From assembly GCA_902628835.1 (NCBI GenBank), contig CACOPD010000002.1, positions 16,218 through 80,217 of the forward strand: 64,000 bases of DNA, written 5' to 3'. The stretch is from an uncultured Alphaproteobacteria bacterium. GTDB taxonomy: Bacteria; Pseudomonadota; Alphaproteobacteria; HIMB59; GCA-002718135. Shown in pieces: positions 3,742 through 49,904 of the stretch. The position numbers and the translations under genes were made by a program. Position 1 is the stretch's first letter; the number at the start of each line of letters is the position of its first letter. The notes under the pieces are model-generated. The model had not been told where the DNA came from and searched no databases. It saw only the letters and a program-made list of their open reading frames with translations.

Positions 3742-3749
3742 CTTTAATT

Positions 3750-4106: not shown

Positions 4107-4109
4107 GAA

Positions 4110-5369: not shown

Positions 5370-5389
5370 TATAGCTCTATATAGCAGTT

Positions 5390-7063
5390 TTAAAAAAGAC
5401 CTTCAATTTCTCCTTGGTCATTTAGCTTTATCGAATTTGCCGCAGGAACACTTGGTAGACCGGGCATAGTCATAATATCGCCGCAGACAACTACTATAAA
5501 TTCTGCTCCTGATGATAGCCTTACTTCCCTAATAGGTAAAACGTGTCCTGTAGGCGCACCTTTTAGATTAGGGTCAGTTGAGAAACTATATTGAGTTTTT
5601 GCGATGCAAACAGGCAATTTGCCAAATCCTTTGGTTTCAAAATCCTTCAATTGTTGACGTACTTTTGTGTCTGCAACAACTTCACTTGCGTGGTAAATCT
5701 CTTGTGCAATTTTTTCTATTTTTTTGAATAGAGTTAAATCATCTTCATATAAAAATTTAAATGTATTTTTACTTTCTTCACAAATATCTATTACATTTTG
5801 AGCTAATTCTTTTGCACCATCACCACCATCTGACCAGTGAGTACACATAGAAGCTTTCACTCCCTGAGTTTTACAAAAATCTAGGACGGCATCAACTTCA
5901 GTTCTAGAGTCAGTTACAAAATGGTTAATCGCAACAGTTACTGGTAATCCGAATTTCCTTATGTTGTTTATGTGTCTTTCTAAATTTACTAAACCAATTT
6001 TAAGTGCATTTACATTTTCATTTTTCAAGTCTTCTTTAGAAACATCACCATGCATTTTTAGTGCTCTAATTGTAGCAACTAAAACTACACAATCAGGTTT
6101 TAAATTTGATTTTCTACATTTTATATCAAGGAATTTTTCTGCTCCTAAATCAGCTCCAAATCCTGCTTCAGTTACAACATATTCACTTAGTTTTAGACTA
6201 GCTTTAGTTGCAATAACAGAATTACAACCATGGGCAATATTTGCAAATGGTCCACCATGAATTATAGCAGGATTATTTTCTAACGTTTGTGTTATATTTG
6301 GTCTGATTGCATCTTTTAGTAATACTGTCATTGGACCTTGTGCATTTAAATCTTTTGCATAAATAGCTTTTTTGTCTCGTGTATATGCAATAGTTATATT
6401 TCCAATTCTCTCTTCAAGATCTTTTAAGTCTTTTGCTAAGCAGAAAATTGCCATTATCTCCGATGCAACTGTTATATCAAAACCATCTTGTCTAGGATAT
6501 CCATTTGCAACTCCTCCTAAATCAACAACAATAGATCTAAGCGATCTATCATTCATATCCATTACTCTCTTCCAAACAACTCTTCTAACATCAATATTCA
6601 ACTTATTTCCCCAGTAGATATGATTATCAATTAATGCAGAAAGTAAATTATGTGCTGACGTAATTGCATGAAAATCTCCGGTAAAATGCAGATTAATTTG
6701 TTCCATTGGAACTACTTGTGCATAGCCTCCACCAGCTGCTCCACCTTTCATACCGAATGATGGTCCAAGACTTGGCTCTCTTAAACAAACAATAGATTTT
6801 TTTCCTAATTTATTAAGACCATCACTTAATCCAACAGAGGTTGTTGTTTTACCTTCTCCTGCTGGTGTTGGAGTTATTGCTGAGACTAAAACAAGTTTAC
6901 CATCTTTATTTTTATTAAGTGACTCTATGTACTCTAAGTTTATTTTTGCTATGTGACGACCCATAGGACTAAACGCTTCTGGCGTATCTGGTACATCAAG
7001 CCCTTCTAGAATTTCACTAATAGGTTTCATTTTAGCTTTTCTTGCTATTTCAATATCTGACAT
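5390..7063 (-). CDS. fhs: Formate--tetrahydrofolate ligase
   Basis: 557 aa with the characteristic [12 protein letters not shown]-loop. It reads as an FTHFS-like sequence over its full length. Confidence 0.95.
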
Positions 7064-7156
7064 GAGACTCCTAAATAATAAGATAGTTAATCTATAGATT
7101 AACTTTTATATCAAACAACTTTTGTTTCATTAAAAGATTAAAAAATTGTGAAGAAG

Positions 7157-8050
7157 CTAATTTAACTCGAATTTCTGTTTGTTATTATAAGAAAAATCTG
7201 AGTTATTAAATTGATTTAACCACTCTGATGTTTTTTTCATACCACCAAAAGCGTAGAAGTGAATTTTTTCAAGTTTGGAGTCTTTGCTTATTTCGCTGTG
7301 TGCAGCAAGATCATAAATCAATTTGTCAGGAGTGTTCAATGTTGCTAGCTTAGTTAAGTTAAAAGCCTGTTTTGTAATAAATCTCAAAGAATTTCCAATA
7401 CCACACGATCTTGCATAATTTATTAATGTTTTAATAGAGGCTGGACCTGGTATGCCAGCATGGATTGGTAATTTATTTCCAATTCTTACTAAGTGTTTCT
7501 CCCATTCGATTAAAGATTTAGCTTCAAAAAAAAATTGAGTTGCTAAATACATTTTAAAATCAGCATTTTTTGCAAAATCATTTTTTTGTTTGATTGCTAA
7601 ATCTAAATTTTCATTTGAAATATCTGGACTTCCTTCGGGATGCCCAGCTACACCTACAGATTGATAATTATATTTTGAAAGAAAATCTGTTTTTAGCACA
7701 TCAATTGAAGAAGAAATTTCACCTGCCTGATTTCCACCACCACCAATAATTAACATTTTTGAACACCCAGATTCATTTGCAAGTTCACCTATATATTTTT
7801 CTAAGTCATTCTTATTTATAATAGTTCTCGCAGGTAAATGAGGTATTACATCATAACCTTCTAATTTTAATTTTTTGGCAGTTCTAATTACATTTTTTGA
7901 ATTTTCATCTGGTAAATAAGTTATATAAATGTCATGATTTTTATCAAGAAATTCAGAAAAGCTTCCATATTTTTCGTAAACATTTGGAGTCGTTTCTATA
8001 GAATAACTATTGAGAAACTTTTTAACGATATTAATGGTTTCTTTAGACAT
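7157..8050 (-). CDS. Methylenetetrahydrofolate reductase family protein (MetF-like)
   Basis: 297 aa. Blocks GVAGHPEGSP, ATQFFFE, IHAGIPGP and IHFYAFG line up with the E. coli MetF blocks AYPEVHPE, ITQFFFD, IIPGILP and FHFYTLN (recalled from memory). Confidence 0.65.
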   Translation of the reverse strand: MSKETINIVKKFLNSYSIETTPNVYEKYGSFSEFLDKNHDIYITYLPDENSKNVIRTAKKLKLEGYDVIPHLPARTIINKNDLEKYIGELANESGCSKMLIIGGGGNQAGEISSSIDVLKTDFLSKYNYQSVGVAGHPEGSPDISNENLDLAIKQKNDFAKNADFKMYLATQFFFEAKSLIEWEKHLVRIGNKLPIHAGIPGPASIKTLINYARSCGIGNSLRFITKQAFNLTKLATLNTPDKLIYDLAAHSEISKDSKLEKIHFYAFGGMKKTSEWLNQFNNSDFSYNNKQKFELN

Positions 8051-8083
8051 AAATTTTTAATGTTTTTTATATTAATTAGATAA

Positions 8084-9019
8084 ATGAACAACAGGTACTT
8101 TACTATAATTACTTTTTATCAATTCAAAATAATTAAAGATAAAAGTAATATCATTACTAAACTTAAAGATTTTTGTAAATTTAATAAAATCAAAGGTACA
8201 ATATTGATTGCTGATGAAGGCCTTAATGGAACAATAGCTGGTCTAGAGAAAAATATAAATTCGTTCATTCTATTTCTTGAGAATTTTAGTTTTGAGAAAC
8301 TTAATCTTAAACGATCAAAATACAAATATATGCCTTTTCAAAAACTTAAAATTAGAAATAAAAATGAAATAGTTACATTAAGAACAAAATTTTCTGATCC
8401 TACAAAAATATCTGGGAAAAAAATTAAATACAATGAATGGAATAAACTAGTTAAAGACAAAGACACTATTGTGATTGATGTAAGAAATGAATTTGAGGTT
8501 AAATTAGGATCTTTTGAAGGAGCAATTAATCCAAAAACTAAAAGTTTCACTGACTTTAAATCTTTTGTTCAAAAAAAACTAAATAAATCTAAAGAAAAAA
8601 AAATTGCTATGTTTTGCACTGGAGGTATTAGGTGTGAAAAAGCTTCATCTTATATGATGATGAAGGGTTTTAAAAATGTTGCTCAGTTAGATGGCGGTAT
8701 ACTAAAGTATTTAGAAAAAACTCCCAAAAAAGATTCAATGTGGAAAGGTGAATGTTTCGTATTTGATGGAAGAGTATCTTTGAAAAATGAATTAAAAGAT
8801 GGAACTTATAAACTTTGCCATGCTTGTCGGTTACCGATTAGTAACAAAGATACTTATTCTAAATATTATAACCCAGGTGTATCTTGTCATAATTGTTTTG
8901 ATAAAACATCTGATGAAAAGAAAAAAAACTTACTTGAAAGAAATAAACAGATTAAACTTGATAAAAAAAGAGGAACTTTTAACCGTTTTATTAAACAGTC
9001 AATTTCTGATTATGAATAA
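8084..9019 (+). CDS. trhO: Rhodanese-domain protein of the UPF0176/YceA family (tRNA uridine-34 hydroxylase TrhO-like)
   Basis: 311 aa with the active-site loop CTGGIRCEKAS and a C-terminal Cys-rich tail (CHACR...CHNC). Confidence 0.8.
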   Translation: MNNRYFTIITFYQFKIIKDKSNIITKLKDFCKFNKIKGTILIADEGLNGTIAGLEKNINSFILFLENFSFEKLNLKRSKYKYMPFQKLKIRNKNEIVTLRTKFSDPTKISGKKIKYNEWNKLVKDKDTIVIDVRNEFEVKLGSFEGAINPKTKSFTDFKSFVQKKLNKSKEKKIAMFCTGGIRCEKASSYMMMKGFKNVAQLDGGILKYLEKTPKKDSMWKGECFVFDGRVSLKNELKDGTYKLCHACRLPISNKDTYSKYYNPGVSCHNCFDKTSDEKKKNLLERNKQIKLDKKRGTFNRFIKQSISDYE

Positions 9020-9060
9020 ATAATACTTTATTTCATATAATTATTCTGTATAGACACTTC

Positions 9061-9255
9061 ATGGCAAAAAAAACTTCATTCGCTCTAAAACAACTAGTAC
9101 CTGAAGAAAATCCAAAAACAGGAACAAAGTATATTGTAAGAAAACCAACAAAAGGATTGAAAGTTGCTGAAAAGCTTAGAATGAAAAAATATGATCCTGT
9201 GTTAAAAAAACACGTTTGGTTTGTAGAGAAAAAAATGCCTCCTCATAGTAAATAA
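9061..9255 (+). CDS. rpmG: 50S ribosomal protein L33 (Cys-less form)
   Basis: 64 aa and basic. The C-terminal KKYDPVLKKHVWFVEKK matches the alphaproteobacterial L33 pattern RKYDPVxKKHVxFxExK. Confidence 0.7.
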   Translation: MAKKTSFALKQLVPEENPKTGTKYIVRKPTKGLKVAEKLRMKKYDPVLKKHVWFVEKKMPPHSK

Positions 9256-9301
9256 TAGATTTACCTCTTTAATTTATTCTAAATTAACATAATTTAAATT
9301 C

Positions 9302-10723
9302 ATGACAGTCACTTATGGTATTCATTGGTTTAGACAAGATTTACGATTACAAGAAAATCCATCTATATTGTCCCTTTCAAAAAAAGTTAATCAAATAATA
9401 CCAATTTATATTTTTGATTTAAATCAAAGAATTGGATCAACATCCAAATGGTGGTTAGAAAAATCTTTAATTAGTTTAGATGGTTCGATAGAAAAACATA
9501 ATGGCAAACTAAACATTTTTGCTGGTGATCCAGAGAAAATTATATCTACGATATTAAAGAATTCAAATGTTAAATGTGTATCTTGGAATAGATTATATGA
9601 CCCTTATACAATTAAAAGAGATACTAAAATTAAATCTATAGTCACTTCATCTAAAATAGAATGTGACTCACATAATGGGTATCTCTTAAATGAACCTTGG
9701 AATATTAAAAATAAAAGTGGAACTTTTTTTAAAGTATTTACTCCTTACTGGCGACATTGTGATGAAATACTGAAACTAAAAGATAATAAATTTAAAAAAA
9801 TAAAAATAAATTATGCCAATTCAAAATTTAAAAATGAAATAACTATACAAGATTTAAATCTAACAAACAAAAAAGATAAATGGATAAAAAAAATTGAAAA
9901 ATATTGGACACCTGGTGAAATTAATGGAAAATTACAATTAAAAAAATATATTTCAGAAAAAGCAAATAATTATTCTGTTGGAAGAGATAGACCTGATAAA
10001 GACTTAACTTCTAAATTATCACCTTATCTTCATTTTGGAGAAATATCTGCTTTTGAAGTATATGATACAGTTAATAATGAAAAAAAAATTAATCCAGAAA
10101 ATAAAAAAAAATTTCTAGCTGAACTTGGCTGGAGAGATTTTTCTTATAATCTTTTATTTCATTATCCAGACATGATCGAAAAACCTATACAAACTAAATT
10201 CAATAAATTTCCATGGATAAAAAATACTAAAAATTTATCATTATGGCATAATGGTAAAACTGGTATTCCAATTGTTGATGCTGGAATGAGGCAGCTATAT
10301 AAAACAGGGTGGATGCATAATAGAGTAAGAATGATTGTAGGCTCATTTTTAACAAAAAATTTATTATTACATTGGAAAAAAGGAGAAGAGTGGTTTTTTG
10401 ATACTTTAGTTGATGCAGACGTTGGTTCTAATTCTGCTGGTTGGCAATGGATTTCTGGTTGTGGTGCAGATGCAAGTCCATATTTTAGAATTTTTAATCC
10501 AATTTTGCAGGGTCAAAAATTTGATCCTGATGGTAATTATGTAAAAGAATATGTTCCTGAGTTGAATAATGTTCCAAAAAAATATATCCATAACCCTTGG
10601 GAGATGTCAGAGGAAGATCAAAAAAAATATAATTTTGAGATTGGTACTTCATATCCATCGCCAATAGTAGATTTAAAAGAAACAAGAAATAGAGCATTAG
10701 CAGCATTTAAAACCATTAGTTGA
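9302..10723 (+). CDS. phrB: Deoxyribodipyrimidine photolyase / cryptochrome family protein
   Basis: 473 aa with the motifs GWRDFSYNLL, TGIPIVDAGMRQLYKTGWMHNRVRM and GWQWISGCGADASPYFRIFNP. Confidence 0.9.
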   Translation: MTVTYGIHWFRQDLRLQENPSILSLSKKVNQIIPIYIFDLNQRIGSTSKWWLEKSLISLDGSIEKHNGKLNIFAGDPEKIISTILKNSNVKCVSWNRLYDPYTIKRDTKIKSIVTSSKIECDSHNGYLLNEPWNIKNKSGTFFKVFTPYWRHCDEILKLKDNKFKKIKINYANSKFKNEITIQDLNLTNKKDKWIKKIEKYWTPGEINGKLQLKKYISEKANNYSVGRDRPDKDLTSKLSPYLHFGEISAFEVYDTVNNEKKINPENKKKFLAELGWRDFSYNLLFHYPDMIEKPIQTKFNKFPWIKNTKNLSLWHNGKTGIPIVDAGMRQLYKTGWMHNRVRMIVGSFLTKNLLLHWKKGEEWFFDTLVDADVGSNSAGWQWISGCGADASPYFRIFNPILQGQKFDPDGNYVKEYVPELNNVPKKYIHNPWEMSEEDQKKYNFEIGTSYPSPIVDLKETRNRALAAFKTIS

Positions 10724-10724
10724 T

Positions 10725-12020
10725 GTGAAAGAAAAAATAGCAATTATTGGTTCTGGTATTTCAGGAATAAGCGCAGCATACCTATTGTCTTCTAAATATG
10801 ATGTTTATTTATTTGAAAAAAATAATAGATTGGGAGGGCATACAAGAACTATTTATGTTGAAGAATTTACAAAGACAATTCCAGTCGATACAGGATTTAT
10901 TGTATTCAATGAAAAAAATTATCCAGATTTAACAAATTTTTTTAAATTACTTAATGTGAAATGCAAAAACTCAGATATGTCTTTTGCCGTCTCAAATCAA
11001 GAACCTCTAATTGAATACAGCGGTAAAAACATCTTTTCTCTTTTTGCTAATTTTAGAAATCTGTTTTCTCTAAATTTTTATAAAATGTTATTTGAAATAA
11101 GAAAACTTTATTTGTTATGCAATAACTTGAATGTCCGTGATCTAGATCAAACTAAAACTTTAAATGATTTTTTAAAAACTAATAATTTTTCAACATATTT
11201 AATAAATTATCATATTTTACCAATGATTTCTTCTATATGGTCAAGCAATATAAGTGATGTAAAAAATTTTCCTCTTATAACGTTTATAAATTTTTTTAAA
11301 AATCATGCTTTATTTAATTTAAAAAAAAGACCTCAATGGAAATACGTAGAAGGTGGAAGTAACGAGTATATAAAAAAAATTATTAATAAAAATGTTTTCA
11401 GATATAAAACAAACTTCAAAATTAAAAAAATTCTCAGAGAAAATAATAATATTAAAATAGAAGACAATAAAAATAATATATTGGAATTTAATAAATTAAT
11501 TTTAGCAACCCATGCCAATCAAGTATTGGATATTTTAGAAAAACCGACAAAAGAAGAATTAAATATATTTTCACAATTTAAATATTCAACTAACTCAGCA
11601 ATACTTCACTTGGATCAATCTTTAATGCCTAAATCAAAAATTGCTTGGTCAAGTTGGAACTTTCTAAATAAATCATCATCTTCAAAATTTACTTTAACTT
11701 ATTGGATGAATCTCCTGCAAAAATTACCAACTAAACAAAATTATTATGTTACCGTTAATCCTTATAAAAGACCTAAAAATATTATTAATGAAACAACATT
11801 TGACCATCCAATATATACTACAGGCACTATTTTAGCTCAAAAAAGTGTTATGGAAATTCAAGGAAATAATAACACTTTTTTCTGTGGAGCTTACCTTGGA
11901 TACGGTTTTCATGAAGATGGCATTCAATCATCTTCTTATGTTTGTAAATTATTGAATTGTGATTTACCTTGGAAGAGAGATAAAAATTTTTATAATAGAC
12001 TGCAAGTTAATTTTGAATGA
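10725..12020 (+). CDS. FAD-dependent oxidoreductase (amine-oxidase / phytoene-desaturase-like)
   Basis: 431 aa with a GTG start 1 nt after the phr stop. The N-terminal dinucleotide motif is IAIIGSGISGISAAYLL...EKNNRLGGHT. Confidence 0.8.
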   Translation: MKEKIAIIGSGISGISAAYLLSSKYDVYLFEKNNRLGGHTRTIYVEEFTKTIPVDTGFIVFNEKNYPDLTNFFKLLNVKCKNSDMSFAVSNQEPLIEYSGKNIFSLFANFRNLFSLNFYKMLFEIRKLYLLCNNLNVRDLDQTKTLNDFLKTNNFSTYLINYHILPMISSIWSSNISDVKNFPLITFINFFKNHALFNLKKRPQWKYVEGGSNEYIKKIINKNVFRYKTNFKIKKILRENNNIKIEDNKNNILEFNKLILATHANQVLDILEKPTKEELNIFSQFKYSTNSAILHLDQSLMPKSKIAWSSWNFLNKSSSSKFTLTYWMNLLQKLPTKQNYYVTVNPYKRPKNIINETTFDHPIYTTGTILAQKSVMEIQGNNNTFFCGAYLGYGFHEDGIQSSSYVCKLLNCDLPWKRDKNFYNRLQVNFE

Positions 12021-18279: not shown

Positions 18280-20256
18280 TTATAAATTTTTAATGATTTT
18301 TTCAATTAAGTAATCGTCTATTATTTTAAAGTGTTTATATAAATCTTTATAAGGACCGCTTTCACCAAAAGTAGACATACCAACAAAATTTTCATCTTTA
18401 ATATATTTTTCCCATCCATTTATTACTCCAGCTTCAATAGCAAAAATAGGTTTATTACCTAAAATTTCATTTTTATAGCTATCATCATTTTTTTCAAACA
18501 ATTCAAATGAAGACATGCTTACAACTCTTATCTTTAAATTATTTTTTTCAAGAAGTTTATTTGATGCAGAGCAAGCAATCTCAACTTCAGAACCTGAAGA
18601 TAAAATTGTTGCATCATATTCGTTGAAATCTCTAATTTTATATGCACCTTTATTAACAAGATTTTCTTTTCGATTATCTTTTTGTAACATTGGTAGGTTT
18701 TGTCGTGTTAAAACTAAGATTGTAGGTCCAGTGTTATTTAAAGCACATTCCCATGCTTCTATAGTTTCAATGATATCACATGGCCTTATGACTGTTAAAT
18801 TTGGTATCGCCCGTAAAGATGCAAGATGTTCAACTGGTTGATGAGTTGGGCCGTCTTCTCCTAATCCTATTGAGTCATGTGTCATAACATAAATAACTGG
18901 TATATTCATAATCGCTGATAGCCTAATTGAAGGTCTGCAATAGTCGGTGAATACCAAAAATGTTCCTCCATATGGAATTAAACCTTTATGCAAGGCGATA
19001 CCATTCATTACTCCAGCCATTCCATGTTCTCTAATACCATAATGAACATAATTCCCATCAAAATTATCAGATGTAATTACATTCATATCTTTTGCTTTAG
19101 TGTTATTAGAGCCAGTAAGATCAGCAGATCCACCAATAAGATTTTTTTGATAGTTTGAAATTAAGTTTAACGTTATTTCACTCGATTTTCTCGATGCACA
19201 ATTTGTTTTTTCATTAAAATGTTCAGATTTTAATTCTTTAAATTTTTCTGGAAGTTTTGAATTAATTTTTTGATAATAATTATCTTTGAAATTGTTACTT
19301 TCAATTAATACTTTATTTTTTGATAACCATGAATTTCTTGATCTATCATTTCTTTTATAGAAATTTCTCCACTCATGTAATAAATCATCTGGAATTTCGA
19401 ATGGCAAATAATTCCATTCTAATTTTTTTCTCGTTAAACTAATTTCATCTTCACCAAGAGGCGAACCATGTGATGAAGCTAAACCCTCTTTGTTTGGAGA
19501 GCCGAAACCAATTTTAGTTTTACAAGATATAATTGTTGGTGCATCATTATCTTTTGCTTGAATTATAGCTTGGTCAATTTCTTCATAGTTATGACCATCT
19601 ATTTCTATTATATTCCAATTATAAGCTTCAAATCTTTTGTTCACATCGTCTGAAACTGAAAGTTCAGTTGATCCATCAATAGAAATAGAATTGTTGTCGA
19701 AAAACATAATAAGCTTATTTAATTTTAAATGCCCTGCTAGACTACACGCTTCATGGCTTAAACCTTCCATCAAGCATCCATCTCCTGCAAAAACATAGGT
19801 GTGATGATCAATTAATTCTTTTCCATAATTATTTGACAGTTTTTTTTCTGCCAACGCCATTCCAACTGCATTTGCTAAACCTTGAGATAAAGGACCGGTG
19901 GTTGTTTCTATTCCTTCTGCACTTCCGTATTCTGGGTGACCTGCAGTTTTATTATGCAATTGTCTAAAATTTTTAATTTGGTTTATGTCAATGTCTTTAT
20001 AGCCTGTTAGATATAAACAGGAGTATAAAAGCATCGAGCCATGTCCATTTGAGATAATTAATCTATCTCTATCAATCCAATTTGGGTCATTCGGATCAAA
20101 CTTTAAATGATTTTTATAAAGAACTGTTGCGATATCAGCCATACCCATTGGCATACCAGGATGACCAGACTTTGCTTTTTCCACTGCATCCATTGATAAA
20201 AATCTAATACAATTTGATAATTGTCTTAGATTTTTGATATTATTTAAATTATTCAA
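18280..20256 (-). CDS. tkt: Transketolase
   Basis: 658 aa with GHPGMPMGMADIA and the ThDP motif GDGCLMEG. Confidence 0.95.
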   Translation of the reverse strand: MNNLNNIKNLRQLSNCIRFLSMDAVEKAKSGHPGMPMGMADIATVLYKNHLKFDPNDPNWIDRDRLIISNGHGSMLLYSCLYLTGYKDIDINQIKNFRQLHNKTAGHPEYGSAEGIETTTGPLSQGLANAVGMALAEKKLSNNYGKELIDHHTYVFAGDGCLMEGLSHEACSLAGHLKLNKLIMFFDNNSISIDGSTELSVSDDVNKRFEAYNWNIIEIDGHNYEEIDQAIIQAKDNDAPTIISCKTKIGFGSPNKEGLASSHGSPLGEDEISLTRKKLEWNYLPFEIPDDLLHEWRNFYKRNDRSRNSWLSKNKVLIESNNFKDNYYQKINSKLPEKFKELKSEHFNEKTNCASRKSSEITLNLISNYQKNLIGGSADLTGSNNTKAKDMNVITSDNFDGNYVHYGIREHGMAGVMNGIALHKGLIPYGGTFLVFTDYCRPSIRLSAIMNIPVIYVMTHDSIGLGEDGPTHQPVEHLASLRAIPNLTVIRPCDIIETIEAWECALNNTGPTILVLTRQNLPMLQKDNRKENLVNKGAYKIRDFNEYDATILSSGSEVEIACSASNKLLEKNNLKIRVVSMSSFELFEKNDDSYKNEILGNKPIFAIEAGVINGWEKYIKDENFVGMSTFGESGPYKDLYKHFKIIDDYLIEKIIKNL

Positions 20257-20341: not shown

Positions 20342-20530
20342 ATGGAAATACAAAAAAAAATTACAGTTCTAAGGGAAAACTTAAATAATTTAAGATCATC
20401 TTTAGAAGATTTTAGAGATCATCATAATTCCAAAAAACAAAAAATTAAAAATCTTGAAAATGAAATTAAAAATTTACGAAAACAAATGTCCGAGTATATT
20501 GATGAATTGGAACTTCTGATTAAAAAATAA
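20342..20530 (+). CDS. Small coiled-coil protein (DUF4164-like, upstream partner of zapA)
   Basis: 62 aa, entirely heptad-like, located directly upstream of the ZapA-like ORF. Confidence 0.4.
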   Translation: MEIQKKITVLRENLNNLRSSLEDFRDHHNSKKQKIKNLENEIKNLRKQMSEYIDELELLIKK

Positions 20531-20532
20531 TT

Positions 20533-20952
20533 ATGCCTTTTTACAAGACTAAAATTTTAAATAGACAAATTTCATTAGAATATGAAAAAAAAGATGAAAG
20601 TAAAATCATAGATTCAATTAATTTAATTAATGAAAAAATTGATAATAAATTACAAAATCCAAAATATTCCAATGGAAAAATAAGTGATACTATATTGTTA
20701 TCACTTCTCTCTATTGAACTTCAAGCAGAGCTTTTAGAAAAAATAAATATACAAAAAAGTTCAGAAATAAACGATGCCAAAAACGAAGAGTATCTTAAAA
20801 ACAATTTAGAACTTAAAGACAAAGTACTAAAACTACAAAATGAAAAAAAAATTTTAGAAAATGAAAAATTGAAATTAGATCAAGAATTTGATGAAATAAA
20901 TAAAAAAGTAGAAGAATTAATTGATATAATTAAGAATTCTTATTATGAATAA
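20533..20952 (+). CDS. zapA: Cell division protein ZapA-like
   Basis: 139 aa with an N-terminal ZapA-like domain (ILNRQISLEYEKKDESKIIDSINLINEKI...LLSLLSIELQAEL) and a C-terminal coiled coil. It sits upstream of the 5-FCL gene as in other proteobacteria. Confidence 0.5.
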   Translation: MPFYKTKILNRQISLEYEKKDESKIIDSINLINEKIDNKLQNPKYSNGKISDTILLSLLSIELQAELLEKINIQKSSEINDAKNEEYLKNNLELKDKVLKLQNEKKILENEKLKLDQEFDEINKKVEELIDIIKNSYYE

Positions 20953-21526
20953 CATTAAAGATAAAAAATTAATTATCAGAAAAAAACAAAAAATTATAAG
21001 AGATAAGATTTTTAATAATAAACCATCTCATTTTACTTTATCTTTGTTTAATAAACTTTTCAAAAAAATTAACTTTAAAGAAATCAATATAGTATCTAGT
21101 TTTATTTCTATAAATTCTGAAATAAATACAAAAGAGCTTAATAAACTTATCTTTACTAAAAATAAAATTTTATGCCTTCCAGTAATCGAAAAAAGAAATA
21201 GTCACTTAATCTTTAAGCAATTTAAGAGTGAAGAGAATTTTGTAAAAGGTCATATGAATATATCAGAGCCTCAAAATAAAAATAAAATTTTAAATCCTGA
21301 ATTAATTTTTGTACCTTGTTTAGCTTTCGATCATAAGGGTAATAGATTAGGTTATGGTGGAGGGTATTATGATAGGACTTTTGCCTATTTAAATAAAATT
21401 AATCATAGTTTCATATCAGTAGCATATGCATATGAAGAACAAAAGTTAGAATACGTACCTATAGACAAATTTGATTTTAAGGTGGATTATGTTATTACTG
21501 AAAAAAATTTGTATAGTTTTCAATGA
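20945..21526 (+). CDS. 5-formyltetrahydrofolate cyclo-ligase
   Basis: 193 aa with the motif GNRLGYGGGYYDRTF. It overlaps zapA by 8 nt. Confidence 0.8.
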   Translation: MNNIKDKKLIIRKKQKIIRDKIFNNKPSHFTLSLFNKLFKKINFKEINIVSSFISINSEINTKELNKLIFTKNKILCLPVIEKRNSHLIFKQFKSEENFVKGHMNISEPQNKNKILNPELIFVPCLAFDHKGNRLGYGGGYYDRTFAYLNKINHSFISVAYAYEEQKLEYVPIDKFDFKVDYVITEKNLYSFQ

Positions 21527-22314
21527 AAATTCTTTTTATAGGTGATATTGTCGGTAAAGCTTCACGAAAAAAAATTAAAGAAATTATCCCAACACTAAAA
21601 TCTAAATACAATACAGATTTGATTATTGCTAATGGTGAGAATGCTACTTCTGGTTATGGACTTTCAAAAAAGGATGCAGAAGAATTATTTTCTAGCGGAT
21701 TGGATCTACTTACACTTGGGAATCATGCATGGGATCAAAGAGATATGCTATCTTATATTGAAGAAAATCCAAAAATAATAAGAGCTTTGAATTACCCTGA
21801 CGGTGTTCCTGGAAAAGGGTATTATATGCTTGAACTTTTAAATGGAAAAAAAATTATCGTAGTACAAGTAATGCTGAGATTATTTATGAATTTATCATTA
21901 GATGATCCTTTTAAAAGTATAATTGAATTTCTTCAAAAAGAGAAGCTTGGTAGTACATGTGATGGGATAATAATCGATATGCATGGTGAAGCAACATCTG
22001 AAAAAAAAGCATTTGGATATTATGTTGATGGTAAAGTTTCAGCAGTTTTAGGTACGCATACACATGTTCCAACTGCTGATAGTGTTATTTTACCTAAAGG
22101 TACAGCTTATCAAACAGATGTTGGAATGTCAGGTGATTATAATTCAATAATTGGTTTTGATATAAATAATCCAATTCATGGATTTGTTAAGGGATATAGA
22201 GCAGAAGGCAGATTTACACCAGCTACTGAAAACATAACCGTATGCGGGGCTTTGGTAGATATCGATAATAATACTGGTTTAGCTAAAAATATTAAACCAA
22301 TTCGAGAGACATAA
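21523..22314 (+). CDS. YmdB-family metallophosphoesterase
   Basis: 263 aa with MKILFIGDIVGK, NGENATSGYG, GNHAWD and GTHTHVPTAD. Confidence 0.85.
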   Translation: MKILFIGDIVGKASRKKIKEIIPTLKSKYNTDLIIANGENATSGYGLSKKDAEELFSSGLDLLTLGNHAWDQRDMLSYIEENPKIIRALNYPDGVPGKGYYMLELLNGKKIIVVQVMLRLFMNLSLDDPFKSIIEFLQKEKLGSTCDGIIIDMHGEATSEKKAFGYYVDGKVSAVLGTHTHVPTADSVILPKGTAYQTDVGMSGDYNSIIGFDINNPIHGFVKGYRAEGRFTPATENITVCGALVDIDNNTGLAKNIKPIRET

Positions 22315-22393: not shown

Positions 22394-23146
22394 ATGGCAG
22401 GACACTCGAAATTTAAAAATATTATGCATCGAAAAGGTGCTCAAGATAAGAAAAGAGCAAAGGTATTTTCAAGGCTTGGAAGAGAAATATCTGTGGCTGT
22501 AAAGGTAGGTGGTGAAGATATTGAAAGCAATGTTAGGTTAAGGTCTGCAATTGCTTCAGCCAAGTCACTCAATATGCCAAAAGATAACATTGAGCGAGCA
22601 ATTAAAAAAGGTCAAGGGAATGATCCTGATAGTAATTATGAAGAAGTAAGATATGAGGGGTATGGCCCTGAAGGCATTGCAATAATAGTTGAGGCACTTA
22701 CAAATAATAAAAATAGAACAGCTGCTGAAATTAGGTCCTATTTTAGTAAACATGGCGGTAATCTAGGTGAAACGGGAAGTGTTAGTTTTGGTTTCGATAG
22801 ATTTGGGAATATTACCCTTGATAAAAGTTTAGTAAAAGAAGATCAGCTTTTAGAATTTCTTATTGAAAATAATACTGAAGATTATGAAATTAATGATACA
22901 GAATATTCAATATATTGTGATCAAAATGATTTGCATGAACTTAATGATAAAATAATTACAAAATATGGTCAGACTAGCTCTGCAAATTTAATTTGGAAAA
23001 GTAAAAATAATATAAATATTGGAAAAGATACAGCAGATAAACTTTTTAAATTACTTGAACTTTTAGAAGACAATGACGACGTTCAAGTTGTATCATCAAA
23101 TTTTGAAGTTGAAGATAATGTTCTATCTTCACTTACAGCCCAATGA
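22394..23146 (+). CDS. yebC: YebC/PmpR family DNA-binding regulator
   Basis: 250 aa with the N-terminus MAGHSKFKNIMHRKGAQDKKRAK. Confidence 0.9.
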   Translation: MAGHSKFKNIMHRKGAQDKKRAKVFSRLGREISVAVKVGGEDIESNVRLRSAIASAKSLNMPKDNIERAIKKGQGNDPDSNYEEVRYEGYGPEGIAIIVEALTNNKNRTAAEIRSYFSKHGGNLGETGSVSFGFDRFGNITLDKSLVKEDQLLEFLIENNTEDYEINDTEYSIYCDQNDLHELNDKIITKYGQTSSANLIWKSKNNINIGKDTADKLFKLLELLEDNDDVQVVSSNFEVEDNVLSSLTAQ

Positions 23147-23157
23147 AAGGAATATAA

Positions 23158-23451
23158 ATGCCTGATAAAGCCTGGAAAAAAAGAGAAAGAGATGTTGCAA
23201 GTTATTTTAATGGGAAAAGGACACCTTTGAGCGGAGGTAATGGTAAAGTAACAAGAGCTGATGTAATTCACGAAGACTTATTTATAGAATGTAAATTAAG
23301 AGCAAAGCATACAGCAATTAGTTTATGGGATGATACTGCAAAGCTTGCCAAAGAGGAGGGTAAGACACCAGTAATAGCATTATGTGAAAAAAATAGACCA
23401 GGTTTCTGGGTAATGGTTCATAGTAGTGATCTTGAAAAAATTAAAAAATAA
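23158..23451 (+). CDS. Small PD-(D/E)XK nuclease-fold protein (Hjc / VRR-NUC-like), candidate Holliday junction resolvase
   Basis: 97 aa with AAGGAA upstream of the ATG. It carries the ordered signature E10 (KKRERD), a Gly loop (LSGGNG), D35 (RADVIH) and E44-x-K46 (LFIECK). It is packed between yebC and tolQ. Confidence 0.5.
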   Translation: MPDKAWKKRERDVASYFNGKRTPLSGGNGKVTRADVIHEDLFIECKLRAKHTAISLWDDTAKLAKEEGKTPVIALCEKNRPGFWVMVHSSDLEKIKK

Positions 23452-23456
23452 TTATC

Positions 23457-24170
23457 ATGGCAGATATTAATAGTACAAATTTATCTACAGAAGCTCCAGA
23501 TTTTTCAATGCTTGCTTTATTTATGCAAGCTGATCTTGTAGTTAAATCTGTAATCATAATTCTAATCTTAGCCTCTATTTATTCTTGGAATGTAATAATT
23601 TCAAAAATTTTAAGAATTAGACAACTAAAAAAACTTGAAAAAGAATTTGAAGATATTTTTTGGTCTGGAAATTCATTTGAAGATTTATATGAAACTTTAA
23701 ACTTTAATCAGACAGATCCAAAATCAAAATTATTTTGTGCTGCAATTTTAGAATGGAAAAAAAGTAAAACTCAATTTGAAAGTGAAACGTCAGATATAAA
23801 TTCTTTAAAGGATAGAATGATTAGATCAATGACAGTTGTTTTTAATAAGGAAAGTGAAAATGTTGAGAGAAATTTAACTTTCCTCGCTACTGCTGGATCA
23901 ACTGCACCGTTTATAGGGTTATTTGGAACAGTTTGGGGTATAATGAATAGTTTTAAATCTATTGCAATTGCACAAAATACAAATTTAGCAGTAGTTGCGC
24001 CAGGTATCGCAGAAGCACTGTTTGCAACGGCCCTAGGTCTTTTTGTAGCTATACCTGCTGTAGTTGCATACAATAAAATTTCAAATGACTTATCAAAATA
24101 CTTTATATCCTTGGAAACATTTATGGATGAATTCTCAACAATTTTTTTTAGACAGTTAGAGAAAAAATAA
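23457..24170 (+). CDS. tolQ: Tol-Pal system protein TolQ
   Basis: 237 aa, MotA/TolQ/ExbB-like, with the motif GSTAPFIGLFGTVWGIMNSF. Confidence 0.9.
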   Translation: MADINSTNLSTEAPDFSMLALFMQADLVVKSVIIILILASIYSWNVIISKILRIRQLKKLEKEFEDIFWSGNSFEDLYETLNFNQTDPKSKLFCAAILEWKKSKTQFESETSDINSLKDRMIRSMTVVFNKESENVERNLTFLATAGSTAPFIGLFGTVWGIMNSFKSIAIAQNTNLAVVAPGIAEALFATALGLFVAIPAVVAYNKISNDLSKYFISLETFMDEFSTIFFRQLEKK

Positions 24171-24171
24171 A

Positions 24172-24600
24172 TTGATTACCTCAAATAATTTAAACAAACG
24201 TAAGAAGCAAAGGTACACTCAAATGAGTGAAATTAATGTTACGCCTTTTGTAGATGTTATGCTTGTTTTACTAATTGTTTTTATGGTTACTGCACCTCTT
24301 CTAACTGTTGGAATAAAAGTTGATTTACCAAAAGTTAAAGCTACTGCATTAACTGACATTAAAGATCCAATTGAGATAACAGTTAAGTTAGATGGAGATG
24401 TCTACATTGGAGAATCAAAAGTTGAAGTCGAAAATTTGATTCCTCGACTAAATGCTATTACTGAACAAAATACTGAAGCAAGGATCTATATAAGAGGTGA
24501 TAGAGTAGTAGCTTATGGAAGGATTATGGAAATTATGTCCATAGTAAATTCAGCGGGATATATTAAAGTTGCATTAATTACTCAAAATCTTGAGCAATAG
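24172..24600 (+). CDS. tolR: Tol-Pal system protein TolR (ExbD family)
   Basis: 142 aa with a TTG start. The motif is SEINVTPFVDVMLVLLIVFM. An internal ATG at 24223 is an alternative start. Confidence 0.85.
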   Translation: MITSNNLNKRKKQRYTQMSEINVTPFVDVMLVLLIVFMVTAPLLTVGIKVDLPKVKATALTDIKDPIEITVKLDGDVYIGESKVEVENLIPRLNAITEQNTEARIYIRGDRVVAYGRIMEIMSIVNSAGYIKVALITQNLEQ

Positions 24601-25677
24601 ATGGACCGTATAAGCTATAATAGTTTAAAAATAATAAATTTTTTTGAAAACTTAAATCCTAAAACATCTGGAATTATTTTTTCAACACTAATACATTTAA
24701 TTATCCTTTTATTTATGGTTGGTTTACCAAATTTTTTTTCTTCAAAAGAAATCTACGTTCCAAACGTAATACCCATTGAAATACTAAATGTTGATGAAAA
24801 AACAAATTTAAAAAAATCAATTATAAAAAAGCCAGAAAACAAAAATAAAGAAACAATTACAAAGCAAAAAAAATTTAATTCATCAGACCAACTAGAGGTA
24901 AAAAAGAATATAGATATAAATGATACTAATATAGAAGAAAAAACTAATCCAAATCAACCAGTTTTAGAAATGAAACAATCTCCTAATATAGAAGTTAAAG
25001 AAACGAAAAAAATACAAATTAAAGAAAAAGAAACTTTAGAAGTTAAGAAAAAAATAGAATCAATTAAAACTGATATTATTAAGCCTAAGCTCAAACCCAA
25101 ACTAAAACCAAAAATTATAAATAATGACAATACAAAATCAGATTTGGATGTTGAAACTAATATTAAAGATAAGCCAAAGTTAAAACCTAAGGAAACTATA
25201 TCTAAACCTAAACCTAAACCAGAAAAAGATTTTAGTATAGCATCAATGCTTAAAGATTTAAGAAATGAACAAACAAATATTGTTCAAAATGAAGTTAAAG
25301 AAGAAGTCGAAGAAATTGATAATAAAAGTAAAGATGATACTGATGAAAACGTTATTTTATCAATATCTGAAATTGATATGTTAAGACAGCAATTGTCGTC
25401 CTGCTGGAACGCACCTGCAGGTGCAGTTATAGAAAGGGGAATGCAGGTAACAATTTCAGCTAAAGTTTTACAAAATATGAAAGTTTCATCAAACAGTGTC
25501 CGTATTGTTGACACAAATATAGCTAAAACTAATCCATTCTATGGACCTATTACTGATAGCGCAATGAGAACTCTGTTAAATCCAGAATGTACACCTTTAA
25601 AACTTCCAAAAGATAAATATAATCTATGGAAAAATCTTACAATTACTTTTGATTATAGTATTATGAAAGGATATTGA
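24601..25677 (+). CDS. tolA: TolA-like protein
   Basis: 358 aa with an N-terminal TM anchor, a long Lys/Glu/Pro-rich linker containing KPKLKPKLKPK repeats, and a C-terminal globular domain. It lies between tolR and tolB. Confidence 0.65.
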   Translation: MDRISYNSLKIINFFENLNPKTSGIIFSTLIHLIILLFMVGLPNFFSSKEIYVPNVIPIEILNVDEKTNLKKSIIKKPENKNKETITKQKKFNSSDQLEVKKNIDINDTNIEEKTNPNQPVLEMKQSPNIEVKETKKIQIKEKETLEVKKKIESIKTDIIKPKLKPKLKPKIINNDNTKSDLDVETNIKDKPKLKPKETISKPKPKPEKDFSIASMLKDLRNEQTNIVQNEVKEEVEEIDNKSKDDTDENVILSISEIDMLRQQLSSCWNAPAGAVIERGMQVTISAKVLQNMKVSSNSVRIVDTNIAKTNPFYGPITDSAMRTLLNPECTPLKLPKDKYNLWKNLTITFDYSIMKGY

Positions 25678-26993
25678 TGAAAAAAGTTTTTTTAATAACC
25701 TTTTTTTTATTTTACAGTTTTAACATTTATTCATTAGAAGTGACACTAACACAGGGTAGTGTTAAACCAACTCCAATAGCCGTGACAGAGTTATATTCAA
25801 AAAATTCACAACTAACAAAGGTAGGTAAAAATATTTCAACTGTTATTTCAGATAATTTAGAAAGGTCTGGACTTTTTTTACCAATAGATAAAAGTTCATT
25901 TATTCAAGATAATGAATCTCTATCTAACATGCCTAGATTTGAAGATTGGAAGTTAATTAAAGCACAGCATTTAGTTTCAGGAAGAATTTCATCTAATAGC
26001 GGAAAAATATCTGTTGAATTCAGGTTGTTTGACGTGTTTCAACAAAAGCAAATAGTCGGAAAAAAATATGAGACTAATGAAAAGAATTGGAGAAGAGTTG
26101 CCCATATAATCTCAGATTCAATTTTTAAAAATATAACTGGAGAAGGTGGATACTTTGATACAAGAATAGTATATGTAGCTGAAACAGGTCCGAAAGATAA
26201 TAAACAAAAAAGATTAGCAATAATGGATCAAGACCAATCTAATCATCGTTTTTTGACAGATGGATCATATCTAGTTTTAACACCAAGGTTCTCACCTAAT
26301 TCACAAAAAATTACTTATATGTCCTATGTAAATAGAAATAATCCAAGAGTTTATATTTTTGATATTGAAACTGGTAAACAAGAAATTGTTGGAGAATTTC
26401 CAGGAATGACATTTGCGCCTCGTTTTTCACCTGATGGAAATCAAATTGTAATGTCTTATACTGATCCAGATATTGGTAATTCTGAGATTTATATACTTGA
26501 TTTAAAAACCCGCATATCAAAAAGAGTTACCAATAATTCTTCAATTGATGTTTCTGCAAGTTTCTCTCCAGATGGAAAACAATTAGTTTTTAATTCAGAT
26601 AGAAGTGGAAGAAGACATTTGTATGTGAGTGATAATGATGGAAAAAGTATTAAAAGAATTAGCAGAGAGGCAGGAAGTTACTATACGCCAGTTTGGTCTC
26701 CAAGAGGCGATATGATAGCATTTACCAAACAAGAGGGTGGGCAATTTTATATTGGCGTTATGGAGACTGATGGTTCAAATGAAAGAATGATCTCAAAATC
26801 ATTTCATGTTGAAGGGCCAACATGGGCTCCAAATGGCAGATTTTTGATGTACTTTAAGGAGGAAAGAACAGCTGAAGATGGATCTGGTGGAGAATCTAGT
26901 CTTTATTCTATTGATTTGACTGGTTTTAATGAGAGAAAAGTAATAACTCCTTTAGGAGGATCAGATCCAGCATGGTCCCCATTAATGCATTAA
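25677..26993 (+). CDS. tolB: Tol-Pal system beta-propeller protein TolB
   Basis: About 438 aa with a signal peptide and repeated FSPDG/WSPxG propeller motifs. I prefer the ATG at 25677, which overlaps the tolA TGA, over the TTG at 25674 used by the ORF track. Confidence 0.9.
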   Translation: MKKVFLITFFLFYSFNIYSLEVTLTQGSVKPTPIAVTELYSKNSQLTKVGKNISTVISDNLERSGLFLPIDKSSFIQDNESLSNMPRFEDWKLIKAQHLVSGRISSNSGKISVEFRLFDVFQQKQIVGKKYETNEKNWRRVAHIISDSIFKNITGEGGYFDTRIVYVAETGPKDNKQKRLAIMDQDQSNHRFLTDGSYLVLTPRFSPNSQKITYMSYVNRNNPRVYIFDIETGKQEIVGEFPGMTFAPRFSPDGNQIVMSYTDPDIGNSEIYILDLKTRISKRVTNNSSIDVSASFSPDGKQLVFNSDRSGRRHLYVSDNDGKSIKRISREAGSYYTPVWSPRGDMIAFTKQEGGQFYIGVMETDGSNERMISKSFHVEGPTWAPNGRFLMYFKEERTAEDGSGGESSLYSIDLTGFNERKVITPLGGSDPAWSPLMH

Positions 26994-27094: not shown

Positions 27095-27619
27095 ATGTTT
27101 TACAAGTTTTTTATCTCTATATTTATAGTTTTCTTTGTTGCAGCTTGTGCAACGAAACCAAAAGACTCTGCTGACTCTTCAGGATCTGGTTCAACAAGTT
27201 CTAGCAGTGATGTTTCTTCTGAAGAAGGAACTATTACAGAAACCGATGGAAGTGGTATTGTATCTGGATCACAGGAAGATTTAATAGTTAATGTTGGTGA
27301 TAGAGTATTTTTTGGATACGATAGTTCAGATTTAGACTCTGACGCATTAGAATTACTTCAAGATCAAGTTGCATGGCTAAAGCAGAATAGCAATGTTTCA
27401 GTAACAATTGAAGGTCATTGTGATGAAAGAGGGACTAGAGAGTACAACTTGGCTCTTGGTGAAAAAAGAGCTCAAGCTGTTAAAAATTACCTAATAGGTT
27501 TAGGAATAAACCCTGATAGAGTTTCAACTATTAGTTATGGTAAAGAAAGACCAGCTGTTGTTGGATCCAATGATGGTGCATGGTCTCAAAATAGACGTTC
27601 AGTAACCATAGTTAACTAA
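27095..27619 (+). CDS. pal: Peptidoglycan-associated lipoprotein Pal (OmpA-like)
   Basis: 174 aa with the lipobox VAAC, a Ser-rich linker and the OmpA-like motif EGHCDERGTREYNLALGEKRA. Confidence 0.9.
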   Translation: MFYKFFISIFIVFFVAACATKPKDSADSSGSGSTSSSSDVSSEEGTITETDGSGIVSGSQEDLIVNVGDRVFFGYDSSDLDSDALELLQDQVAWLKQNSNVSVTIEGHCDERGTREYNLALGEKRAQAVKNYLIGLGINPDRVSTISYGKERPAVVGSNDGAWSQNRRSVTIVN

Positions 27620-27639: not shown

Positions 27640-27669
27640 GGCGCTATAGAAATATAGCGCCACATTTTT
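27640..27669 (+). terminator. Rho-independent terminator-like hairpin after pal
   Basis: A 9-bp stem (GGCGCTATA / TATAGCGCC) with a GAAA loop, followed by ACATTTTT. It is one of the few GC-containing hairpins in the window. Confidence 0.6.
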
Positions 27670-29627: not shown

Positions 29628-31529
29628 ATGAAAAACATCAGTAAAAACGTTGTATTATGGATAATAATTGGATTGCTCTTAATCGTACTTTTCAATCTCT
29701 TTCAAGGAACCTCTAACAATAGAAATACTTCAAAAATATCCTTTTCTGACTTCATAGCAGCTACTGAAAGTGGAAACGTTTCTGAAGTAAATATTAATGG
29801 TAGCAATGTTACAGGATTTTTAAATGACGGTCGATCATTTAGCACATATGTTCCTAATTATCCCAATTTGGTAGATAAATTAAATGAAAGTGGAGTAAAA
29901 ATTACTGCTGAGCCTTCTGAAAGATCAATGCATCCACTTCTAAGTGTATTACTGTCATGGTTTCCTATGCTTCTTTTAATTGGAGTTTGGATCTTCTTTA
30001 TGCGCCAAATGCAAGGCGGTGGTGGAAAAGCAATGGGCTTTGGTAAATCTAAAGCTAAATTATTAAACGAGGCTGTAGGTAAAGTTACATTTGACGACGT
30101 AGCAGGTATTGATGAAGCTAAACAAGAATTAGAAGAAGTTGTTGAATTTTTAAAAGATCCTTCAAAGTTTTCCAGATTAGGGGGTAAGATTCCAAGAGGC
30201 GCACTTCTAGTAGGCCCCCCAGGTACTGGAAAAACACTACTTGCAAGAGCAATTGCAGGTGAAGCAAATGTTCCTTTCTTTTCTATTTCAGGATCAGATT
30301 TTGTTGAAATGTTTGTAGGGGTTGGAGCTAGTAGAGTTAGAGATATGTTTGACCAAGGTAAAAAAAATGCACCTTGTATAGTTTTTATTGATGAAATTGA
30401 TGCTGTTGGAAGACACCGTGGCGCCGGTCTTGGTGGTGGGAATGATGAAAGAGAACAAACTCTTAATCAACTTCTTGTAGAAATGGATGGGTTTGAAGCA
30501 AATGCGGGTGTAATTATAATTGCCGCAACAAACAGACCTGATGTTCTTGACCCAGCTTTGCTTAGACCAGGAAGATTTGACCGTCAAATAACAGTTAATA
30601 ATCCTGATGTAATGGGAAGAGACAAAATACTCAAAGTTCATATTAAAAAAATTAAAGTTTCACCAAAATTTGACTCCAAAATTATTGCAAGGGGAACGCC
30701 AGGTTTTTCTGGAGCTGATTTAGCAAATTTAGTCAATGAAGCAGCATTACTAGCGGCTAGAAAAAATAAAAGAATGGTTACACTTGAGGATTTTGAAAGT
30801 GCCAAAGACAAAGTTATGATGGGTGCTGAAAAAAGATCTATGGTCATGTCAGAAGACGAAAAGAAACTTACAGCCTATCATGAAGCTGGTCATGCAGTAG
30901 CAACTCTTCACTCACCAGCTTCCGATCCGATACATAAAGCGACTATAATTCCGAGAGGTAGAGCCTTAGGCATGGTTATGAGACTTCCTGAAAAAGATCA
31001 GCTGTCTATGCGAAAAGATCAAATGAAAGCGCACTTATTAATAGCAACTGGTGGCAGAATTGCAGAAGAAATGATTTTTGGTAAAGATAAAATTACAAAT
31101 GGTGCGGCAAGCGATATACAAATGGTGACAAATCTATCAAAAAAAATGATTACTGAATGGGGTATGAGTGAAAAATTAGGCCGTCTGAGATATAACAGTG
31201 ATAGTGAGGAAGTTTTCCTTGGGCATTCTGTTGCACAATCCAAAAATTTATCTGACTCAACAGCAAAATTAATTGATGAAGAGGTTAGATCTCTTGCAGA
31301 AGAGGCTGAAAATAATTGTAGAAAAATTCTTCAAGATAATATTGAAGAATTGCATATAGTTGCTAAGGGTCTTTTAGAGTATGAAACATTATCAGGTGAT
31401 GAAATTAAAGATTTAATAAAAGGTATAAAACCAACTCGAGATGATTTTGATAATGATATTAACACACCAAAAAAACCAGCCACATCTGTTCCAAAAACAG
31501 GCGGTTCAGCTACGGCACCAGCAAACTAA
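29628..31529 (+). CDS. ftsH: ATP-dependent zinc metalloprotease FtsH
   Basis: 633 aa with Walker [18 protein letters not shown] and the zinc motif HEAGHAV. Confidence 0.97.
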
Positions 31530-49859: not shown

Positions 49860-49904
49860 GACATTTTGTTACTTAATATATATTATAATAATTGGAACGG
49901 TAGA

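Follow-up and report, generated by a model that had tools for sequence, protein, structure and literature searches.

A phage-type Hjc-like mini-nuclease in the place of ruvC-ruvA-ruvB: bacteria of the marine order HIMB59 probably finish DNA recombination with a borrowed enzyme

We analysed a stretch of 64,000 nucleotides (the window) from an uncultured alphaproteobacterium (GenBank assembly GCA_902628835.1, contig CACOPD010000002.1, positions 16,218 to 80,217 of the forward strand) and focused on a 97-residue open reading frame (ORF) that is packed between yebC and tolQ. An initial annotation, made from the letters alone, had placed this ORF at 23158-23451 of the + strand with an AAGGAA just upstream of its ATG; the position and the neighbours were recovered, the protein sequence is identical and the AAGGAA is present at 23147-23152. 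The yebC stop codon occupies 23144-23146 and the ORF begins 11 nt later, and its own TAA at 23449-23451 is separated by a 5-nt spacer from the tolQ ATG at 23457. The features of the locus are the following, all on the + strand.

23158-23451, +: coding sequence of 97 amino acids (294 bp), an Hjc-like PD-(D/E)XK mini-nuclease and predicted phage-type Holliday-junction resolvase, based on the ORF, the phrog_2002 match, the protein family, hhalign and selection
23147-23152, +: Shine-Dalgarno-like AAGGAA read from the letters of the sequence, 5 nt before the ATG, putative in function
23185-23190, +: codons of E10-R11, paired with Hjc E9-R10 by conservation and the hhalign register
23218-23235, +: codons of R21 to S25-G26 (the R-T-P-L-S-G loop), paired with Hjc R25 and S29 by invariance and hhalign
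23260-23262, +: codon of D35, invariant and paired in the hhalign register with Hjc D33, a metal ligand
23287-23295, +: codons of E44-C45-K46, the E-x-K motif, paired by hhalign with Hjc E46-V-K48; E44 and K46 are invariant
22394-23146, +: yebC (TACO1/YebC family), the upstream neighbour, from Pfam TACO1/YebC (E=4e-51) and synteny
23457-24170, +: tolQ, the downstream neighbour, from Pfam MotA_ExbB (E=2e-35)
24172-24600, +: tolR, from Pfam and from precomputed Pfam domains on orthologous loci
24601-25677, +: tolA-like gene, on the same two grounds
25674-26993, +: tolB, on the same two grounds
27095-27619, +: pal, on the same two grounds
27640-27661, +: first terminator-like hairpin 3' of the gene, after pal, from a consensus scan only
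20342-22314, +: conserved upstream block of a small ORF, a zapA-like gene, 5-formyltetrahydrofolate (5-FTHF) cyclo-ligase and ymdB, common to ruvCAB-bearing relatives

The same consensus scan found the + strand free of terminator-like sites from yebC up to 27640, and yebC, the 97-residue gene and tol-pal are probably transcribed as one unit. The hairpin at 27640-27661, between pal and cpoB, has a perfect 9-bp stem (GGCGCTATA...TATAGCGCC) and scored as terminator-like on the - strand too. Promoter-like matches around the locus are uninformative because their number is at chance level. Beyond pal the genes continue with cpoB, tilS and ftsH, and the guanine-plus-cytosine (GC) content of the window is 29.4%.

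The position of the gene acquires its meaning from relatives that carry the same flanks. In seven loci (L297-L303; contigs up to 354 kb, including GCA_045563025.1 and GCA_902563305.1) ruvC-ruvA-ruvB-ybgC lies between yebC and tolQ, and the complete order after gap is small ORF-zapA-5-FTHF ligase-ymdB-yebC-ruvC-ruvA-ruvB-ybgC-tolQ-tolR-tolA-tolB-pal-cpoB-tilS; the records of this ruv-bearing lineage are labelled 'Alphaproteobacteria/Rickettsiales bacterium', and it is probably SAR11-like. A further locus, L270 (GC 30.8%), reads ymdB-yebC-ruvC-ruvA-ruvB-ybgC-tolQ-tolR-tolA-tolB-pal-cpoB with proteins 43-49% identical to those of the window, and its RuvB has abundant relatives in marine data. The frame of the window and the other HIMB59-type loci differs from the ruv-bearing frame at two points: the 294-bp gene stands in place of the 2.5-kb ruvC-ruvA-ruvB-ybgC, and tkt (transketolase) lies beside gap (18280-20256, -). 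In L297-L303 gap directly adjoins the zapA-ymdB-yebC block, with thiE and efp beyond. The initial annotation had taken this interval for a ruv slot, and the related lineage indeed holds ruvC-ruvA-ruvB-ybgC exactly there, whereas none of the four was found in the window. Since the same frame carries the ruv block in relatives and the 97-residue gene here, a positional replacement in situ has direct comparative support at the level of gene order. The ruvCAB-bearing relatives show the ruv genes in the same yebC-tolQ slot, so the linkage to tol-pal was inherited from the ancestral ruv position, and a new functional link to Tol-Pal was considered and rejected.

We then characterized the protein by its family. 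In PHROGs it matches phrog_2002, 'Holliday junction resolvase', with E=1.3e-10; residues 3-94 align to positions 16-112 of the 130-position profile, which is also matched by 85 of 99 diverse family members and agrees with the phage-type resolvase proposed in the initial annotation. When 1.84 billion representatives of clusters at 50% identity were searched exhaustively with HMMER, 1,022 clusters passed E<=1e-3 and 579 of these passed E<=1e-10; wherever a source names a member the name is 'hypothetical protein', and no member carries a precomputed Pfam domain. Only seven columns are invariant among the 99 diverse members, whose identities fall as low as 38%: E10, R21, S25, G26, D35, E44 and K46. 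R11 is near-invariant (at least 90% conserved), and all eight residues are invariant in 70/70 unique host and phage sequences. This is the PD-(D/E)XK catalytic signature, an acidic residue in helix 1, an Asp on a strand and E-x-K on the next strand; the E10, LSGGNG loop, D35 and E44-x-K46 that had been picked out by eye are thus present, and conserved in both sets of sequences.

Some members depart from the single-domain form. In 21 of 148 family representatives (P0123, P0129, P0135, P0140 and others), of about 150-180 residues, the full domain is followed by a partial second copy consisting of the C-terminal half (helix 2, strands 4-5) and lacking the catalytic N-terminal part; such proteins may be fused pseudo-dimers, and they give an indirect hint of dimerisation in the family. 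Nineteen of the 99 members also match phrog_244, 'RusA-like Holliday junction resolvase', and none matches Pfam RusA; the phrog_244 label is probably loose, mixing unrelated resolvase folds.

For comparison with the archaeal resolvases, the Hjc/Hje alignment was rebuilt from four PDB-verified sequences, Pfu Hjc matching 1GEF end to end (E=1.7e-77). The family profile aligned by hhalign to this 4-sequence profile over 78 columns with a probability of 84% and E=7e-6, in a register that sets E10, R11, R21, S25, D35, E44 and K46 on Hjc E9, R10, R25, S29, D33, E46 and K48, respectively. Mutagenesis of Pfu Hjc identified E9, R10, R25, D33, E46, K48 and K81 as essential (review, PMC10956419), and six of these seven fall in register on invariant or near-invariant residues. 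With single sequences hhalign does not discriminate between families, as the results for Hjc (1.7%), YraN (3.6%, 12 columns) and RecU (0.08%) were all insignificant. In Pfam, PF24608 (PDDEXK_15, 'Phage putative PDDEXK endonuclease') was matched by 12 of the 99 members, far below the gathering threshold (best E=0.0027), and UPF0102/YraN (PF02021) by one, also below threshold (E=0.0051); RecU (PF03838), RusA (PF05866), RuvC (PF02075) and VRR-NUC (PF08774) were matched by none at E<=0.1. The profile matches, the Hjc register and the weak Pfam scores, of which that for Pfam Hjc is given below, together identify the protein, on sequence grounds, as a PD-(D/E)XK enzyme that is closest to Hjc and lies outside Pfam Hjc. 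Of the kinships named in the initial annotation, the block-by-block likeness to Hjc is therefore upheld by the hhalign match with the catalytic residues in register, and for the likeness to VRR-NUC no similarity was detected in any of the 99 members; the profile searches it had proposed gave Hjc/Hje by hhalign and phrog_2002, and left RecU, RusA and YraN without support from Pfam.

Hjc/Hje (PF01870; PDB 1GEF, 1HH1, 2WCW and 1OB8) are of the same small PD-(D/E)XK type with the same alpha-beta-beta-beta-alpha-beta-beta order of elements. They are, however, 123-143 residues long as opposed to 97 and archaeal, whereas the present family is bacterial and phage-borne; the window protein also has a shorter connection between helix 1 and strand 1, a 6-residue insertion in the Ser-Gly loop and no C-terminal PIP-type tail. 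PDDEXK_15 and UPF0102/YraN belong to the same superfamily, but the window protein matches neither Pfam model.

Two AlphaFold models were obtained. Model 1, built from 40 close homologs with a predicted local distance difference test score (pLDDT) of 75, contains a helix at residues 5-16, short strands at 20-21 and 36-37, a strand at 41-47, a helix at 53-67, strands at 70-76 and 83-86 and a helix at 89-96. In a Foldseek search of the PDB its top 17 places went to archaeal Hjc structures, at probabilities reaching 0.99, template modelling (TM) scores of 0.46-0.58 and E from 5e-3, followed by tRNA-splicing endonuclease and RecU. Model 2, built from the 99-sequence alignment (pLDDT 90.5, predicted TM score 0.74), has the same order of elements with short strands and matches predicted proteins of uncultured phages with TM up to 0.80 and probability 1.0, some of which are named 'Holliday junction resolvase'. 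Many of its BFVD matches split into good superpositions (root-mean-square deviation (rmsd) 2-4 Å) and poor ones (rmsd 14-17 Å), and this split suggests that there are two alternative predicted arrangements. The mismatch of model 2 with solved structures, described below, could plausibly reflect the prediction of an obligate dimer as a monomer in an open arrangement. Both models show the order of elements expected of the alpha-beta-beta-beta-alpha-beta core of PD-(D/E)XK nucleases, and taken together the fold predictions are mixed: supportive, but inconclusive. A small protein without catalytic activity, which binds DNA or protein and regulates or assists YebC or Tol-Pal, would fit the tight packing between yebC and tolQ and the fact that the high-confidence model matches no solved nuclease; we regard it as most improbable, as the full acidic and basic catalytic set is invariant in 99 members, even in phage copies, which lack yebC and tol genes as neighbours, and such invariance is typical of active enzymes.

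The distribution of the gene was investigated in one genome per GTDB species, and close relatives were found in 170 genomes. The best 80 of these 170 are mostly marine single-cell genomes named 'uncultured Alphaproteobacteria bacterium AG-...', and include 'HIMB59-LRMED-199' and 'MarineAlpha5_Bin5'. In AG-891-K05 the protein is 99% and YebC 95% identical to that of the window, and this genome, 98.8% complete, has been described as a reference for family GCA002718135 of the order HIMB59 (PMC10734472). This places the window in HIMB59, an order formerly known as SAR11 clade V and now separated from Pelagibacterales; the initial annotation had looked to Pelagibacterales for the relatives, and the near-identical protein and YebC of AG-891-K05 correct this. 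One locus (L074, NHJW02000023.1) that is labelled 'Gammaproteobacteria bacterium TMED225' is of HIMB59 type, with 95-97% identity to the window proteins, and this metagenome-assembled genome is probably mislabelled or chimeric.

All 84 chromosomal loci for which DNA was available (L002-L005, L010-L089) have the order ymdB-yebC-[gene]-tolQ-tolR-...-tolB. Three further divergent variants of the protein, that of MarineAlpha5_Bin12 being 72% identical, occupy the same yebC-tolQ slot, some of them with overlapping reading frames. The conservation at this locus that had been proposed as a check thus extends to the slot and to the catalytic residues alike. The protein is better conserved than the housekeeping proteins beside it, with for instance 91% identity as against 73-76% for YebC, 63-67% for YmdB and about 81% for TolQ. 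The nonsynonymous divergence (dN) of the gene is the lowest among six neighbouring genes in every pair tested, and its ratio to synonymous divergence (dN/dS) is about 0.02-0.08, which indicates very strong purifying selection and shows that the gene is real.

The closest relatives outside this order are carried by phages. BLASTP and tblastn detected one protein 78-80% identical in phage contigs of 25-38 kb, encoded between the small (TerS) and large (TerL) terminase genes, and in IMG/VR relatives with 71-83% identity occur on 150 contigs; in all 80 that were retrieved the order is TerS-[gene]-TerL, followed by portal wherever the contig reaches, at a GC content of 27-48%. The contigs with the gene between TerS and TerL are marine, podovirus-like and about 37 kb long, and make up a large group that seems to be uncultured (L006-L009, L097-L176). 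Their TerL shares 78% identity with the TerL of Pelagibacter phage EXVC032P 'Baldr' (L308, OQ414636.1), which was considered as a cultured carrier and rejected, since the corresponding position holds an unrelated 108-residue ORF upstream of TerL. Among cultured phage genomes, tblastn found relatives in two Bacteroides phages only. In one of these, BS162P1 (OP172706.1, L001:4323-5315), the domain forms residues 227-318 of a 330-residue protein and is 46% identical, and the N-terminal part is a NUMOD4 and HNH_3 homing-endonuclease module annotated 'I-HmuI'; this is either a true fusion of two nucleases or a homing endonuclease inserted beside the gene. Other cellular copies reside in replication modules of prophages, that of Pelagicoccus mobilis adjoining DNA polymerase A and an AAA_25 protein and that of a 764-kb contig following AAA_24-DUF669-helicase-primase. 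Both kinds of phage context, beside terminase genes and in replication modules, fit phrog_2002, which is a phage family annotated by remote homology, whereas the copy in the window has a fixed place in the chromosome of a free-living bacterium.

In a neighbour-joining tree the host sequences form one clade inside the phage diversity, and we consider that transfer more likely went from phage to the HIMB59 ancestor than in the other direction, a polarity suggested by the tree of sequences. A recent transfer between host and phage was rejected because the phage copy is of phage-like composition (GC 45% vs 34%) and its nucleotide identity to the window gene is 67%. Since the closest relatives are phage genes, and the BS162P1 domain is fused to a NUMOD4-HNH module, the HIMB59 gene might be a selfish or defensive nuclease of phage derivation, such as a mobile-element remnant, a toxin or a homing-type endonuclease, with no housekeeping role. 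This appears very unlikely for a single-copy gene that keeps the same chromosomal position throughout a clade of order rank, even in copies as little as 72% identical, and that has close relatives in 170 species-representative genomes; its flanks contain no mobile-element genes, its dN is below that of yebC, tolQ, tolR and tolB, PADLOC returned no match for it and no partner antitoxin-like ORF is found.

In order to determine whether the Ruv proteins are encoded in sequence at hand, the window was searched by tblastn with E. coli RuvA, RuvB and RuvC; none was found, the best weak alignment (E=9e-4) lying at 30051-30293 inside ftsH. L270 RuvC, RuvA and YbgC gave no match in the window or in 1.2 Mb of HIMB59-type loci (+/-8 kb), and the matches of L270 RuvB to the window and these loci were confined to the approximate position of ftsH and taken as its AAA domain. 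No recombination gene occurs among the ten largest ORFs of the window. RuvB was also sought over metagenome contigs with its invariant Walker-A peptide, back-translated with A/T-biased third positions: of the 120 RuvB loci recovered, L270 and L218 alone are of the related ruv-bearing lineage and none is attributable to HIMB59. The 97-residue gene is absent from all 127 RuvB-bearing loci (907 kb), and the contigs of RuvB clusters did not overlap in length with those that carry the gene, which is weak evidence. The literature searched in full text contained no mention of RuvABC in HIMB59 and no report of the replacement.

The most serious competing explanation is a PD-(D/E)XK structure-specific nuclease with another job, for example fork or flap processing or the degradation of phage or foreign DNA intermediates, which landed in the scar left by ruv genes that had moved or been deleted, with RuvABC, RecU, RusA or RuvX encoded elsewhere. 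The Ruv search covered about 1.2 Mb of HIMB59-type sequence around the locus, RuvAB is to our knowledge nearly universal in bacteria, and substrate specificity is not readable from sequence, all of which leave room for it. We nevertheless judge it unlikely, given that the replacement is exact with the whole flanking frame intact, that the family is annotated and placed like phage resolvases, that none of the 127 RuvB-bearing loci carries the gene and the two kinds of contig do not overlap in length, and that the constraint is extreme for an accessory function.

We favour, with moderate confidence, a domesticated Hjc-type junction resolvase of phage origin that replaced the Ruv operon in situ and would serve as the cellular resolvase of HIMB59. 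In phages the enzyme would debranch replicating DNA before packaging. The HIMB59 ancestor may have acquired one such gene, whose copy took the ruvC-ruvA-ruvB-ybgC position and would be transcribed with its neighbours yebC and tol-pal. Its product is predicted to be a minimal metal-dependent PD-(D/E)XK endonuclease that, as a homodimer like Hjc, would bind four-way or branched DNA through R11, R21 and the S25-G26 loop and introduce paired nicks by an active site of E10 (helix 1), D35 (strand 2) and E44-x-K46 (strand 3). As a cellular junction resolvase it may work together with RecG or do without any motor dedicated to branch migration, for which RusA with RecG offers a precedent. Junction specificity, dimerisation, the direction of transfer and the functional replacement of RuvABC are what we infer from the comparisons above.

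There is precedent for such an exchange. RecU, of Firmicutes and Mollicutes, is the textbook PD-(D/E)XK resolvase that replaces RuvC in a bacterial lineage (PF03838); it has about 200 residues and works with retained RuvAB, whereas here ruvA and ruvB are missing from the locus as well. RusA of lambdoid prophages (PF05866) is a functional analogy only, its fold and catalytic residues being unrelated, and in E. coli it is a cryptic suppressor, unlike the present gene, which is fixed at its locus. Given RecG, RusA, a small resolvase of phage derivation, can stand in for all of RuvABC and suppresses E. coli ruv mutants, and an archaeal Hjc makes good the repair defect of E. coli ruvC mutants (both PMC10956419).

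Several observations weigh against a cellular Hjc-type resolvase. The 97-residue protein has no Pfam match at E<=10 and no NCBIfam match, and searches of PDB sequences with the protein and with two profiles gave none. The 84% match to Hjc stands without rival profiles of equal depth, K81 of Hjc falls on C76 and so has no equivalent in register, and Pfam Hjc (PF01870) is matched by one of the 99 members, weakly (E=0.028), as compared with 113 bits for the Pfu Hjc control. Model 2 has no significant match in the PDB (1GEF: TM 0.31, rmsd 14.9 Å). The bootstrap values on the 96-column alignment are weak, with hosts nested in 53%, hosts monophyletic in 42% and phages monophyletic in 6% of replicates. 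The scan for Ruv proteins covered the window and the sequence around the locus, and ruvABC may lie elsewhere in HIMB59 genomes. We also know of no biochemically characterised member of the family or of phrog_2002, a point that was not checked exhaustively. The wider proposal, that the whole order HIMB59 has lost the complete RuvABC and that the 97-residue phage Hjc-like nuclease in the place of ruvC-ruvA-ruvB resolves its recombination intermediates, is a tentative one to which we give slightly less than an even chance.

Elsewhere, the left part of the window (751-12020) encodes sarcosine oxidase subunits (751-5369, -), formate-tetrahydrofolate ligase (5390-7063, -), a DNA photolyase (9302-10723, +) and an amine oxidoreductase, and 48400-54354 encodes MoeA and subunits resembling an NAD-linked formate dehydrogenase.

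That an unrelated resolvase can take the place of RuvC is already known, from RecU in Firmicutes and from RusA as a laboratory suppressor, and so are Hjc-type phage resolvases. What appears to be new, as read from gene order and protein families, is a minimal family missing from Pfam and NCBIfam, its apparent domestication in an abundant free-living marine order, and a visible swap in situ in which ruvA and ruvB were seemingly lost from the locus along with ruvC. One 12-gene frame displays both the ancestral and the derived state, and extant phages still carry relatives 71-83% identical to the incoming gene, itself a phage gene. A predicted function thereby falls to a 'hypothetical protein' that is highly conserved in an abundant marine clade, and likewise to a widespread family of phage genes; its small size of 97 residues makes the protein an attractive candidate junction-resolving enzyme for biochemistry. 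If the wider proposal is true, HIMB59 would be among the very few free-living bacteria without RuvAB and would present a natural, fixed counterpart of the E. coli rus suppressor. Population genomics suggested that homologous recombination maintains the flexible genomic islands of HIMB59 (PMC10734472); if RuvAB is truly absent, the order would be a natural test of the dispensability of the resolvasome in a streamlined genome and would show how such cells sustain homologous recombination, which they probably finish with an enzyme borrowed from a phage.

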